Of a DNA stretch of 64,000 nucleotides, positions 362 through 6,603 are shown piece after piece. Below the pieces are notes generated by a model that searched no databases, was not told the origin of the DNA, and saw nothing but the letters and a program-made list of their open reading frames with translations. Made by a program: the position numbers and the translations under genes. The DNA comes from Escherichia phage pEC-M2929-1AR.1, in sequence record OP177727.1. One strand, written 5' to 3'. The number at the start of each line of letters is the position of its first letter. Positions within the stretch are counted from its first letter, which is position 1.

Positions 362-450
362 TGGCAGCAAGGTGAGGAATCGAACCCCTTGATCTATGGT
401 TTGGAGCCATATTGAGTACCATACTCTTTTAAATCTACCCGGCTATGAGT
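362..450 (-). tRNA. tRNA-like element, possible degenerate tRNA (anticodon-like loop CCA)
   Basis: Good anticodon arm (TATGG-CTCCAAA-CCATA) and T loop TTCGATT with CCA end, but no acceptor or D stem could be paired by hand. Confidence 0.3.
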
Positions 451-2702: not shown

Positions 2703-2784
2703 TGGTCGGGGTGACAGGATTCGAACCTGCATACTCCAATTACTCGGTTAACGCCTGATTAGAAGTCAGGTGAGATACACCCCG
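2703..2784 (-). tRNA. tRNA, identity unresolved (candidate anticodon loop CTTCTAA = UCU, Arg-type)
   Basis: Acceptor CGGGGTG/CACCCCG and T arm GCAGG-TTCGAAT-CCTGT are clear; the 47-nt interior could not be folded into a canonical D plus anticodon arm by hand. Confidence 0.4.
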
Positions 2785-2856
2785 TTTTCACAGTAACTAT
2801 AACAAAAAACTAAGTGAATGTCAAGATATTTTTACTAAAATTATTATTTAAATTGA

Positions 2857-2962
2857 AGCCTAGTTATGGAATCGAACCATATTTCGTATTTAGTTAGACA
2901 AAGCGGTCTAACATATTTTTCAGGCTTTGATGGCCTCGGAATTACCAAATACCCTACTAGGC
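2857..2962 (-). ncRNA. oversized tRNA-like RNA (about 106 nt)
   Basis: Perfect 7-bp acceptor-like pairing (GCCTAGT/ACTAGGC) and canonical T arm (TATGG-TTCGATT-CCATA) enclose a 74-nt interior containing hairpin GTTAGAC-CGCTTTG-GTCTAAC. Confidence 0.35.
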
Positions 2963-2964
2963 GT

Positions 2965-3050
2965 TGGTGCAAGTGGAGGGATTCGAACCCTCAATCATTT
3001 AAGCGTTGCGTTTTAAGCACAATGTGTATCACCAATTCCACCACACTTGC
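2965..3050 (-). tRNA. tRNA-Leu, anticodon UAA (type II)
   Basis: Acceptor GCAAGTG/CACTTGC, anticodon arm TTGTG-CTTAAAA-CGCAA, long variable arm, T arm GAGGG-TTCGAAT-CCCTC. Confidence 0.6.
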
Positions 3051-3081: not shown

Positions 3082-3157
3082 TGGTGGTTCCCCAGGGTTA
3101 CAATCCCTGCCCTCGACACTTATGAGGTGTGCGCTCTCGTCAGTGAGCTATGGAACC
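3082..3157 (-). tRNA. tRNA, anticodon CAU (Met-type)
   Basis: Acceptor GGTTCCA/GGGAACC, D arm GCTC-ACTGACGA-GAGC, anticodon loop CTCATAA, T stem CAGGG/CCCTG with atypical loop ATTGTAA. Confidence 0.5.
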
Positions 3158-3904: not shown

Positions 3905-5638
3905 TTAGTCAACCTGGATGGTTCCCATAGTACGAAGAACCTCTACATCAACACGGTTGCGGATATCAGTGAATGTTTCATCACGTCCTTCTACTTGTGG
4001 TGTAATAACCTTACCATTCTTGAAGATAACTTGTAACTCATTGTCTTCATCCTGGATATCTTTAAAAGAAAGATTATCTACAAGAGAAAGATTACCATTG
4101 GTATCCTTAACAACCTTAATAAAACCTTTTGCAGAGCGTTTACCAGGATCAGTTTTAGGCTCCTTACTTACCAAAATTTCGTGTTCACCGATGATACTAC
4201 CTGTTGCTTTAACAGCAAAACCAAAAGTATCTCGTGTATTGAACTGATAAGTATAACTACCAACACCAAATACAATATTGGAAGCTGCAAAACCTTTCTT
4301 CTTCAGTCGGCGTAAGATCTCGTGTTCTCGTTCAACAGTAATAGAATCACCATAAATCATACCGATATGCTGATCAAGAACCTTGTAACCTTTTCGGTTG
4401 ATAGTACCACCAAACACTTCCCAAAGGATTTGAATAGAACCTACTGCTTCACAATAAGGAATCTCATAAGTTTCATCAATGCAATCAGCAACACTGCAAT
4501 CCTGAAGAACATTGTAATACTTATTAACATCAGCCAAATGAACTACTTCAGTGGCTGTCGCAATACCATTATTTAAGAGGTCTTCATAGTTATCAAAAGA
4601 TTCAACATTGTATCCTGCAACAACTTTAACCGGATCTCCTGAATCTGGACGAATAACAAGACGACCATTTCGTGACATAATGGAATCTTTCAATTCTACC
4701 AGAATGCGAGTCAATACAGCCCAATAGTCATAAGAGTCTGCTACATATGAACAAAAACCTTCTGGAACAATTTCTTCGATATAACGACGAAGAAACTCTT
4801 TTTCTGCTACATAACGAAGCCCATCTACATCATCTTTAAGATGTGGAAAATGTTTCTTCAGATCTTCAACAATAGCTCCAATGTTAGTCGTTGCTACTGA
4901 ATGTTCTGTTGCCGGAATCGAACCTGCAACAAACTGATCATAATCAATACCATAATAATCATGCACAGTTTCAATAGCCAGAATATTATCTGTTCCTGTG
5001 AACGATGCCAAGTGAGCGATACCACTCTTATAACCATCTTCGATATTACTTAAACCACGTAGGCTAAAGTCATGACACTGGAAGTTAACGTGATCAATAT
5101 TATCACACGTTGCCATCGCATATGCCATAGCGATACGCTTATACTGAAAAGCTGCTGTAGCGTTAGTCATTGTCTTCCAAGTTTCATCTGACAACAGTGT
5201 TTCCACATAGTTAGTTAACCAAAAGAATTTTTCTAAAGTATTATGCACAGTAAACACAGGAACACCAATAGGACACAAAACACCTTCTGGCAGAGATCGA
5301 ACTTCCAGCGGAAGATAACCTAAATCGTGCAATTCTCCCCAACATTCAGCAGAAGGAGCAGAAGCACCTAATGCATTTTTAGACATACGATAAAATTTAT
5401 TTACTGCTGCACTACGAGACATTTTAAAGAAGCTATCCCACATAGTTACAAGAGCATCAGTGACTGCTCGACGAATACCTAAAACAATCACACCACGTGC
5501 TTCACGATCTGCATAGTGTGCAAAGTTTTTATCATTACGAGGAGTTAAATTAGAGAAAATAAGTTTTGTATTTTGGTTGTACATCTGCTTGTGACCAGGT
5601 TTGTACCAATCAGTAGCAAAAGGTGCAAAAATATTCAT
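3905..5638 (-). CDS. nadV: nicotinamide phosphoribosyltransferase family protein (NadV/NAMPT-like; candidate Namat of a NARP1-type module)
   Basis: 577 aa; NAMPT-family blocks DWYK, LPLEVRSLPEG, FTVHNT, HDFSLRG, SFTGTDN, RPDSGDP recognised by eye against known NAMPT sequences. Confidence 0.85.
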   Translation of the reverse strand: MNIFAPFATDWYKPGHKQMYNQNTKLIFSNLTPRNDKNFAHYADREARGVIVLGIRRAVTDALVTMWDSFFKMSRSAAVNKFYRMSKNALGASAPSAECWGELHDLGYLPLEVRSLPEGVLCPIGVPVFTVHNTLEKFFWLTNYVETLLSDETWKTMTNATAAFQYKRIAMAYAMATCDNIDHVNFQCHDFSLRGLSNIEDGYKSGIAHLASFTGTDNILAIETVHDYYGIDYDQFVAGSIPATEHSVATTNIGAIVEDLKKHFPHLKDDVDGLRYVAEKEFLRRYIEEIVPEGFCSYVADSYDYWAVLTRILVELKDSIMSRNGRLVIRPDSGDPVKVVAGYNVESFDNYEDLLNNGIATATEVVHLADVNKYYNVLQDCSVADCIDETYEIPYCEAVGSIQILWEVFGGTINRKGYKVLDQHIGMIYGDSITVEREHEILRRLKKKGFAASNIVFGVGSYTYQFNTRDTFGFAVKATGSIIGEHEILVSKEPKTDPGKRSAKGFIKVVKDTNGNLSLVDNLSFKDIQDEDNELQVIFKNGKVITPQVEGRDETFTDIRNRVDVEVLRTMGTIQVD

Positions 5639-5709
5639 AGTTATGTCTCCTTGTTTGTTAATGTGGGAGTATCTTACTAAGCATACTCCCTATTGTCAAC
5701 ACTTATTAT

Positions 5710-6603
5710 TTAAAAATTCCACACATATGGAGATACAATTTGTTGTTGCAAATCTGACTGATTCTTAACAAGAACACCGGAATCTTCTTGGATGTTATCT
5801 TCCCACACATTAAGAGAGTGAATACAGTCAAAGTGCTCACTTAACTCTTTAAGACCTTTAGAAAAGATACCGTGTGTAACATATAGCTCAATCTTACCTG
5901 CGTTACGAGCACGTAGCACTTTAGCCAATTCGATAAAAGTTCTACCACCATCACAGATATCATCTACGATCATCAGGTTACGCTTATTGAAATCCTGTAC
6001 AGAAATGTCTGTACGAACAATAGCACCTGTTGCGGTATCTCTAACCTTCTCTGCACAGAACACATCTAAAGACATTTTCTTAGATAATTTAAATATTTTC
6101 TTAAGAGCACCACCATCAGGGCTAACAAGAGCAAAATTCTCCATACGTAACTTCCACTTTAAAGTTTCGTAAGCAATCTCTTCTTGAGGTATTACACAGA
6201 GTCTGTCAAACACTGCTGGAGTAACATCACTATGCGGATCAGCAACGATAACACGTGAGAAATTTAATGAATTAATTATAGAAGCAAATGCTTTAACTCC
6301 AAATGCTTCCCCAGGCTCACACACTCTGTCTTGTCGTGCATACGGCACATACAACATGAGTAAATCAACACAATATGGTTTATGATATAGCATATTGTCC
6401 AATGCATTCTTAGTCATAACCAAAGTCATCAAGTCTTTAGCAGATCTTACTTCTAAAGTGAGTAAGATTCTGTCTGTAGTATGATTGAAAACTGATAGAT
6501 TCGTATCTAACTGAACATGTTGTTCTCCACCAGAGAATGTAAACACTTTAACGTCTACATCAGTAACATAACAGTCAACACCATGCAGAATACTAACTTT
6601 CAT
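5710..6603 (-). CDS. prs: ribose-phosphate pyrophosphokinase family protein (Prs-like; candidate Adps of a NARP1-type module)
   Basis: 297 aa; PRPP-synthetase blocks VPYARQDR, LVSPDGG, PRPP-binding loop MIVDDICDGGRT, VTHGIFS. Confidence 0.8.
   Translation of the reverse strand: MKVSILHGVDCYVTDVDVKVFTFSGGEQHVQLDTNLSVFNHTTDRILLTLEVRSAKDLMTLVMTKNALDNMLYHKPYCVDLLMLYVPYARQDRVCEPGEAFGVKAFASIINSLNFSRVIVADPHSDVTPAVFDRLCVIPQEEIAYETLKWKLRMENFALVSPDGGALKKIFKLSKKMSLDVFCAEKVRDTATGAIVRTDISVQDFNKRNLMIVDDICDGGRTFIELAKVLRARNAGKIELYVTHGIFSKGLKELSEHFDCIHSLNVWEDNIQEDSGVLVKNQSDLQQQIVSPYVWNF

Follow-up and report, generated by a model that had tools for sequence, protein, structure and literature searches.

What kind of RNA is encoded by an oversized tRNA-like locus within a phage tRNA array? 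The question is raised by positions 2962-2854 (minus strand) of Escherichia phage pEC-M2929-1AR.1 (sequence record OP177727.1), from which a stretch of 64,000 nt, hereafter the window, was analysed. The phage is a virulent E. coli myophage which resembles phi92 and falls in the genus Justusliebigvirus (subfamily Stephanstirmvirinae). The element is a real gene for a tRNA-shaped RNA, shared by a conserved phage family, and the tentative reading offered here is that of a charged tRNA mimic which takes no regular part in decoding.

Standard tools do not see this gene. ARAGORN made no call at the locus, and Rfam, a scan which the initial annotation had proposed, gave no match there either at the gathering threshold or at E values up to 10, so that an ordinary tRNA recovered after a coordinate shift is ruled out. 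Nevertheless, a covariance model (R2) built from other phage lineages, without any Justusliebigvirus sequence, finds 2854-2962(-) with 78.3 bits (E 2.6e-19); nothing else in the 64 kb exceeds the 22.7 bits reached by ordinary class II tRNAs. With model R1 the window copy scores 92.2 bits. The parts of the element, from its 5' end, are as follows.

2854-2962, minus strand: the complete gene of the oversized tRNA-like RNA, 109 nt long when the 3' U-UCA tail is counted, with G1 at 2962 (models R1 and R2).
2956-2962, minus strand: 5' strand of the acceptor, GCCUAGU, pairing 7/7 with ACUAGGC at 2858-2864.
2938-2953, minus strand: D arm GGUAUU-UGGU-AAUUCC, following A8 and G9; its 6-bp stem contains one U:U and its loop has 4 nt.
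2922-2936, minus strand: anticodon arm AGGC-CAUCAAA-GCCU, flanked by G (2937) and G (2921).
2882-2920, minus strand: 39-nt variable region, made up of AAAAAUAU, a 7-bp hairpin (2893-2912) and UAAAUACGAAA.
2865-2881, minus strand: T arm UAUGG-UUCGAUU-CCAUA, with compensatory changes in 3/5 pairs.
2854-2864, minus strand: 3' strand of the acceptor, ACUAGGC (2858-2864), discriminator U73 (2857) and UCA (2854-2856), where relatives encode CCA.

The minus strand thus reads GCCUAGU, AG, D arm, G, anticodon arm, G, AAAAAUAU-hairpin-UAAAUACGAAA, T arm, ACUAGGC, U and UCA, a full cloverleaf with acceptor, D, anticodon and T arms and a variable region bearing a hairpin. The 7-bp acceptor-like helix, the canonical T arm (2881-2865), the oversized interior of exactly 74 nt (2955-2882) and the extra 7-bp hairpin within it (GUUAGAC-CGCUUU-GUCUAAC, 2912-2893) had all been noticed in the initial annotation and were found as described, on the minus strand. 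It described no further arms of a cloverleaf, and in this respect it has to be amended, since the interior holds both a D arm and an anticodon arm. The anticodon loop, of 7 nt, has the triplet UCA at 2928-2930, preceded by A33 at 2931 and followed by A37, and the top of its stem carries a G:G (pair 27:43). The minimum free energy corresponds to a z-score of -2.8, with 2 of 200 shuffles folding as well as the element.

The fold is supported across the family by covariation. In the main, model-based alignment (25 sequences, 23 pairs, 565 cells), 99.5% of the cells form standard pairs, 13 of the 23 pairs have changed on both sides, and compensatory changes occur in every helix. The observed covariation score was reached by none of 500 shuffles, and sliding the partners by 1-3 columns lowered pairing to 34-49%. 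A MAFFT alignment of 18 sequences gave the same picture. Compensatory changes affect 4/7 pairs of the acceptor helix, three D-stem pairs covary, and the outer pair of the anticodon stem changes from A:U to G:C. Moreover, the elbow pair 19:56, which joins the D loop to the T loop, is G:C in 17 sequences and U:A in 8; this joint switch of the D-loop G and the T-loop C, from G19:C56 to U19:A56, is direct evidence for the L-shaped tRNA fold.

In the members the acceptor/T branch is 7/5, the D stem has 6 bp and closes a 4-nt loop, and the anticodon arm has a G on either side. The variable region measures some 39 nt, or 30 nt in the rV5 type, with A-rich conserved linkers surrounding a central hairpin. 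This hairpin stands at the same place in every member, its sequence being replaced from group to group with the pairing kept, and its loop GAACUAACAGUA is conserved in one subgroup. The family also conserves the sequences that flank the hairpin, GAAAA(A)UA and AAUACAUAG. The window copy shows this architecture, deviating by the U:U in its D stem and by AAUACGAAA in place of AAUACAUAG.

The same evidence bears on whether the structure serves solely as a processing or transcription signal, that is, as punctuation for RNase P or RNase E or as an antisense terminator on the plus strand. The tight placement between tRNA genes would agree with this, as would the plus-strand hairpin at 2893-2912, which, followed by ATATTTTTCA, scores as intrinsic-terminator-like; the A-rich linker 5' of the hairpin, the source of the plus-strand T-run, is conserved family-wide. 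However, an acceptor/T minihelix would suffice for processing, which leaves the covariation of the D stem, of G19:C56 and of the anticodon stem, and also the identity nucleotides, unexplained. G:U pairs in the stems identify the tRNA (minus) strand as the functional one and would be C:A mismatches on the plus strand, where, in addition, no gene upstream needs termination. As a sole explanation, an antisense terminator or pure processing signal was rejected on the strand-specific G:U pairs and the covariation outside the acceptor/T helix, and we regard it as very unlikely. The initial annotation had suggested a processing signal or a decoy; processing alone does not account for the D-/T-loop tertiary pair, the variable-region motifs and the triplet/discriminator combinations, whereas the decoy is retained below. 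Its broader proposal of a tRNA-derived structured RNA agrees with the results, as no standard tRNA finder calls the element and it sits in a tRNA operon.

How far does the family extend? BLAST searches with the element recovered about 30 near-identical Justusliebigvirus copies and, at about 70% identity, Erwinia Henunavirus phages and the Salmonella N4-like phage UTK0002 (Schitoviridae). Searches with metagenomic and Henunavirus-like versions led to full-length homologues in further groups: Seunavirus (PVP-SE1, SSE121, 4MG, and Cronobacter and Enterobacter phages), Mydovirus (KPP-1, Ro1, Mydo and others), Avunavirus Av-05, rV5-like IMG/VR contigs, and unclassified and metagenomic contigs. The homologues are about 98-110 nt long. 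Almost all are unannotated or covered by spurious small ORFs (open reading frames), and only the Henunavirus records (e.g. Hena1 and pEp_SNUABM_01) label them, as 'tRNA-TERM / tRNA-sup(tca)' of 108 nt. Each genome has a single copy, always within a tRNA array and mostly 1-5 nt past the CCA of another tRNA, and the gene order tRNA-Met, tRNA-Leu(UAA), element is common to the window and to the unrelated contigs L016, L020 and L048. Two patterns run against 185,000 bacterial and archaeal genomes returned no copy of the family, which, within that collection and for those patterns, appears to be phage-only. Pattern matches in L014, L017-L019, L045-L047, L049 and L050 were discarded as chance matches in coding DNA or beside ordinary tRNAs. 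Full-text literature searches found no description of the oversized tRNA family.

Some further observations concern individual members. ARAGORN reports two rV5-type members (L038:1714-1812 and L039:270-367) as 'tRNA-???' and assigns them an anticodon of 4 bases, atcc, at position 37, which is a mis-parse of the 98-99 nt RNA. In L016, the family member is directly followed by a 97-nt tRNA-like sequence (2542-2638) with a 6-bp acceptor, another hairpin and two consecutive T-arm motifs, UUGGG-UUCGAUU-CCCAA and GAAGG-UUCGAUU-CCUUC. In PVP-SE1, about 860 nt between the family member and tRNA-Leu are unannotated (L054:4453-5312, equivalent to PVP-SE1 65952-66811), and ARAGORN and Rfam (E up to 1) find no RNA in this gap.

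Whether such RNAs could be charged was considered from their identity nucleotides. G1:C72 and C2:G71 are invariant (25/25 sequences), U73 occurs in all but the rV5 type (A73) and SPLA5a (C73), and almost all members encode CCA. U73, G1:C72 and C2:G71 are the acceptor determinants of E. coli glycyl-tRNA synthetase (GlyRS), and the E. coli glycine set combines UCC or GCC with U73, the lysine set UUU with A73; U73 and G71 are also read by the TacT toxin (PMC9976931). The loops, triplets and discriminators of the family are the following.

Window group, Henunavirus, UTK0002, L016 and L020: loop CAUCAAA, triplet UCA, U73.
L048: loop AAUCAAG, triplet UCA, U73.
NINP13076: loop CCUCAA, triplet UCA, U73.
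PVP-SE1 and Mydovirus groups: loops CAUCCA and CCUCCA, triplet UCC, U73.
K54lambda and 4MG: loops CCGCCA and CAGCCA, triplet GCC, U73.
rV5-like contigs: loop UUUUUAA, triplet UUU, A73.
Av-05: loop UUUAUAA, triplet UAU, U73.

Triplet and discriminator are combined here as in the identity sets for glycine and lysine, which suggests charging of the family RNAs by host synthetases. The window triplet has C35 but then A36, where the glycine set has C36; U73 with C35 and A36 would also fit cysteinyl-tRNA synthetase (CysRS).

The triplet UCA also recalls selenocysteine tRNA, as do the long variable arm and the D arm with its 6 bp and 4-nt loop, and in related phages UCA tRNAs with long variable arms are at times annotated in this way. 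RF01852 is in fact the best Rfam model for the relatives (24-42 bits), and 'tRNA-SeC' genes have been reported in the Vequintavirinae phage SSBI34 (PMC8879037). The relatives' scores, however, stay below the gathering score of 47 and are similar to those of ordinary tRNA-Ser, and the window copy gives no match. The acceptor/T branch is 7/5 (12 bp) instead of 8/5 (13 bp), and it is not extendable, as the A at position 8 faces A or C and an 8-bp acceptor cannot form. The discriminator is U instead of G, A33 replaces U33, and UCA is absent from most family members. The lead from SSBI34, 'tRNA-SeC plus serine tRNA ligase', was rejected: the supposed ligase turned out to be a hypothetical protein of 196 aa, and the initial 30 kb of the SSBI34 sequence contain no family member. 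A selenocysteine tRNA is therefore hardly credible.

As to ordinary decoding, position 33 is A or C, never U, in all members with UCA, UCC or GCC; in the largest groups, those of PVP-SE1 and Mydovirus, loops are only 6 nt long; loop positions 33 and 34 vary between near-identical Mydovirus copies; and a normal tRNA-Gly is also carried by PVP-SE1 and by the window phage. Because of the missing U33, the mostly 6-nt loops, the changing positions 33 and 34 and the separate normal tRNA-Gly, the family looks chargeable but badly suited to ordinary decoding.

The explanation that we prefer, although tentatively and from sequence comparison, is that the family represents a charged tRNA mimic which is no routine decoder, keeping synthetase identity elements but lacking U33 and bearing a bulky extra arm, and which would offer tRNA-directed host enzymes a decoy or an alternative substrate. 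The element would be co-transcribed with the neighbouring tRNAs, excised by RNase P and the 3' tRNA-processing enzymes, and its CCA repaired or added. It might then be aminoacylated through its glycine-type acceptor end, given that G1:C72, C2:G71 and U73 are the GlyRS acceptor determinants in E. coli, and the charged RNA could draw off those host enzymes which, in the course of infection, attack tRNAs or their aminoacylated forms. In the window lineage, with its 7-nt loop and UCA, any ribosomal activity would be limited to weak read-through of UGA (opal). Phage tRNAs have been proposed or shown to counter tRNA-targeting defences (PMC10264068; PMC11464382), in papers which deal with other RNAs and not with the oversized family.

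A more specific version, which we consider a long shot, would make the family a class of phage anti-defence RNA: a mimic charged by GlyRS (by lysyl-tRNA synthetase, LysRS, in the rV5-like contigs) and unreadable by the ribosome, which traps or diverts host toxins or anticodon nucleases. Unreadability would come from the missing U33, the 6-nt loop and a bulky extra arm binding protein or RNA. The targets might be acetyltransferases of the TacT/AtaT2/KacT type, reading tRNA-Gly by U73 and G71, or anticodon nucleases, and the fast-changing loop positions 33 and 34 would be the record of an arms race.

Several points weigh against the charged-mimic explanation. The match between triplet and discriminator rests on two identity classes only, and Av-05 (UAU with U73) fits neither of the sets. 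We know of no host enzyme that targets such an RNA, and a stoichiometric decoy is a weak strategy against a catalytic toxin. Furthermore, six divergent lineages have all kept UCA although their loops differ at positions 32 and 38. Such a pattern suggests that the triplet itself is selected, and it agrees better with decoding, or with A36 being recognised, than with recognition by GlyRS, which wants C36. Given this conservation, weak opal suppression is to be kept in mind, as is some protein that reads A36.

Opal suppression is in fact the first alternative to be weighed. The RNA would be charged with glycine or cysteine, delivered by EF-Tu, and would allow low-level read-through of phage or host genes, or compensate for a host response. 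The 7-nt loop of the window lineage, with UCA followed by A37, speaks for such a suppressor, and the triplet is retained in Justusliebigvirus, Henunavirus, Ithacavirus, L016, L020, L048 and NINP13076. The Hena1 and pEp_SNUABM_01 records are themselves annotated as tRNA-TERM/suppressor. Classical E. coli glyT mutants changed from UCC to UCA are UGA suppressors. The 17-tRNA array of L020 which holds a UCA family member also contains a tRNA with a CUA anticodon (2791-2865; called 'tRNA-Pyl' by ARAGORN, amber-suppressor-like), so this phage may use stop-codon-reading tRNAs. In addition, tRNAs with hairpins grafted into the variable arm are reported to be still able to translate (PMC7590224).

On the other side, the near-universal U33 is replaced by A33, a G:G stands atop the anticodon stem, the 39-nt variable region exceeds that of known decoding tRNAs, and sister lineages have 6-nt loops. 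In the 64-kb window, TGA is a normal stop, ending 15 of 74 long ORFs (20%), and a search for in-frame TGA or recoding found only two short, chance-level open stretches separated by TGA, with no notable ORF pair. Moreover, the gene has been lost in phi92 and many relatives without visible compensation. An opal suppressor is judged possible but doubtful.

The remaining points against the charged-mimic explanation concern the Justusliebigvirus copy itself, which is the most deviant member of the family, and the same points favour a decaying relic, that is, a family functional elsewhere whose copy in this genus is a pseudogene without a role. The only unpaired cells in the family alignment are U12:U23 of the three Justusliebigvirus rows. 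Where relatives encode UCCA, the copies of this genus have UUCA or UCCC (the latter in the sister variant L011/L015), so that CCA has been lost in two ways, and the otherwise invariant AAUACAUAG has become AAUACGAAA in the window copy. The T stem of the window is rich in A:U, its outer part being all A:U. The window copy is among those with the lowest R1 scores (92 bits, compared with 99-125 for most members).

The element is present in 30 of about 55 genus records and absent from about 25 (about 45%), including the type phage phi92. There are at least two independent deletion alleles, both leaving gene fragments, for which reason insertion into element-free genomes is ruled out: in the KKE7M type, nucleotides 1-66 or more are gone, starting exactly at G1, and CUAGGC-U remains, while in the Paula/phi92 type the first 5 nt of the element remain. 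Since the gene is deleted in phi92 and other members of the genus, it is dispensable for growth on laboratory hosts; it looks accessory and under relaxed constraint in Justusliebigvirus, and the window copy may be without a role in this phage.

Nevertheless, several points speak against decay. The acceptor (7/7), the T stem (5/5) and the anticodon stem are intact, and where the T stem has changed, the changes compensate each other instead of breaking pairs. The variable hairpin is new in sequence, yet its 7 bp are perfect and it is maintained at the place and length seen in relatives. Distant lineages have the very same loop, CAUCAAA. As for the tail, tRNA genes without CCA are normal in many phages and a CCA-adding enzyme can complete them, and the missing CCA could be made good here in the same way. 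A relic is considered rather unlikely.

The family can also be set against known systems. It resembles class II tRNAs in the 7-bp acceptor, the 5-bp T stem, the T loop UUCGAUU, G19:C56 and the extra arm between the anticodon and T arms, as well as in the location within tRNA operons and in the discriminator followed by CCA in most members. With tRNA-Sec (RF01852) it shares the 6-bp D stem and 4-nt loop and, in the window lineage, UCA. It differs from both in its 39-nt variable region with conserved single-stranded linkers of 7-8 and 10-11 nt, in A8 instead of U8, in A/C33, in the G:G atop the anticodon stem and in its many 6-nt loops; from tRNA-Sec it departs also by the 7/5 branch as against 8/5 and by U73 as against G73. 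To our knowledge, a 39-nt variable region exceeds that of any described tRNA. Canonical elongator tRNA (RF00005) has in common the four helices and G19:C56, here supported by covariation, while the window has A33 and a variable region of 39 nt instead of 4-5 nt or an arm of up to some 20-odd nt.

The initial annotation compared the element with the small stable RNAs of the T4 tRNA region. Species 1 and 2 of phage T4 are small stable RNAs of unknown function which are encoded in the tRNA cluster and released by tRNA-processing enzymes, and the element may resemble them in this; the oversized family has a full cloverleaf with identity-type nucleotides. For allo-tRNAs, with 8/4 or 9/3 acceptor/T branches and serine identity, a suppressor or regulatory function has been proposed (Mukai et al. 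2017, PMC5389517). They are alike in their non-canonical cloverleaf, long variable arm and switching anticodons, including stop readers, and in that some occur in phages or in polycistrons of irregular tRNAs (PMC5389517); they are unlike in that the family has a 7/5 branch with a glycine- or lysine-type acceptor end and is found in enterobacterial phages, as opposed to Acidobacteria and alpha-proteobacterial phages.

The tRNA-Lys of T5 acting against PARIS (PMC11464382) and the anticodon-loop variants (PMC10264068) likewise involve a tRNA array in a virulent phage, accessory genes and a fast-evolving, deviant anticodon stem-loop; those are canonical decoding tRNAs with a demonstrated target, whereas the oversized family has a remodelled body and doubtful decoding. 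The non-proteinogenic tRNA-Gly of Staphylococcus is alike in concept, a glycine-accepting tRNA kept off the ribosome, and unlike in being of normal size, feeding Fem peptidoglycan cross-bridge synthesis and belonging to a Gram-positive organism (PMC7826273). We know of no such pathway in the phages considered here or in their hosts.

Phages of the phi92, rV5 and PVP-SE1 types are widely isolated and form part of phage-therapy collections and of the BASEL reference set. A conserved RNA gene is missing from nearly all annotations of those phages, from Rfam and from the literature searched. It stretches the known limits of a tRNA, with its 39-nt variable region, lack of U33 and tRNA-Sec-like core on a 7/5 frame. 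If it were a decoy or a suppressor, it would bring a new mechanism into the debate on why phages carry tRNA arrays, and natural variants with and without the element within one genus make the question directly testable.

Turning to the setting, the first 8 kb of the window are 97-99% identical to vB_EcoM_AMO3598, EC.P2, PHB05, ECGD1 and others. The minus-strand tRNA array spans 3157 to 281; ARAGORN finds 16 tRNAs in it and Rfam adds one (2706-2784), the element being placed between tRNA-Leu(UAA) and this additional tRNA. The features around the element, and a second deviant locus of the array, are these.

3082-3157, minus strand: tRNA-Met, upstream of the element (ARAGORN).
2965-3050, minus strand: tRNA-Leu(UAA), upstream of the element (ARAGORN).
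2796-2824, minus strand: promoter-like site TTGACA-17-TATAGT, with 11/12 matches, 30 nt downstream of the element and ahead of the next tRNA-like gene.
2706-2784, minus strand: tRNA-Arg(UCU)-like gene without D arm (Rfam tRNA 40 bits; missed by ARAGORN).
362-444, minus strand: second element, an 83-nt tRNA-Trp-like RNA with A1:U72, G73-CCA and loop CUCCAAA.

G1 of the oversized element begins 2 nt past the CCA of tRNA-Leu(UAA), so that tRNA-Met, tRNA-Leu(UAA) and the element presumably form a single transcript. Near-consensus sigma-70 promoter-like sites occur on the minus strand before individual tRNA genes, at 2655-2684 (TTGACA-18-TAGATT) as well as at 2796-2824, and for this reason the array seems to consist of several short transcription units rather than one operon.

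The initial annotation had also pointed to a second element at 362-450, with good anticodon and T arms and no pairable acceptor. Both arms were found, while the ends do pair, forming an 8-bp acceptor (with a C4:U mismatch and G5:U) over a 4-bp T stem (8/4), with a linker of 10 nt before the D arm. ARAGORN misses this RNA, and the Rfam tRNA model gives 22.9 bits. It is kept in all Justusliebigvirus records, and comparison with Klebsiella phage FKP3 reveals compensatory changes in the acceptor, D and anticodon stems, two of which support the acceptor/T pairing. Its 8/4 layout is shared with the allo-tRNAs. It was rejected as a member of the oversized family, scoring just 14-15 bits with the family models.

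In the RNA at 2706-2784 only 7 nt separate the acceptor from the anticodon stem, and the variable region bears an additional hairpin. The gene has A73-CCA and a promoter-like site to itself (2824-2796). It is annotated as tRNA-Undet or tRNA-OTHER in two relatives and is retained where the main element has been deleted. It was likewise rejected as a family member, giving no match with E up to 1. As the element, 362-444 and 2706-2784 are all non-canonical, the array holds at least three structurally deviant tRNAs that retain synthetase identity nucleotides.

Two minor observations were made in passing. Two long ORFs adjoining the tRNA array (window 3905-6603, minus strand) are, according to the annotations of relatives, a nicotinamide phosphoribosyltransferase and a ribose-phosphate pyrophosphokinase, an NAD+ salvage pair of a known counter-defence type that thus lies beside the tRNA cluster. 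Finally, four records entered as 'Campylobacter phage' with host C. jejuni (MG065639, MG065645, MG065656 and MG065689) are about 98% identical to E. coli Justusliebigvirus in this region and carry the phi92-type deletion; they are probably mislabelled or contaminant genomes.

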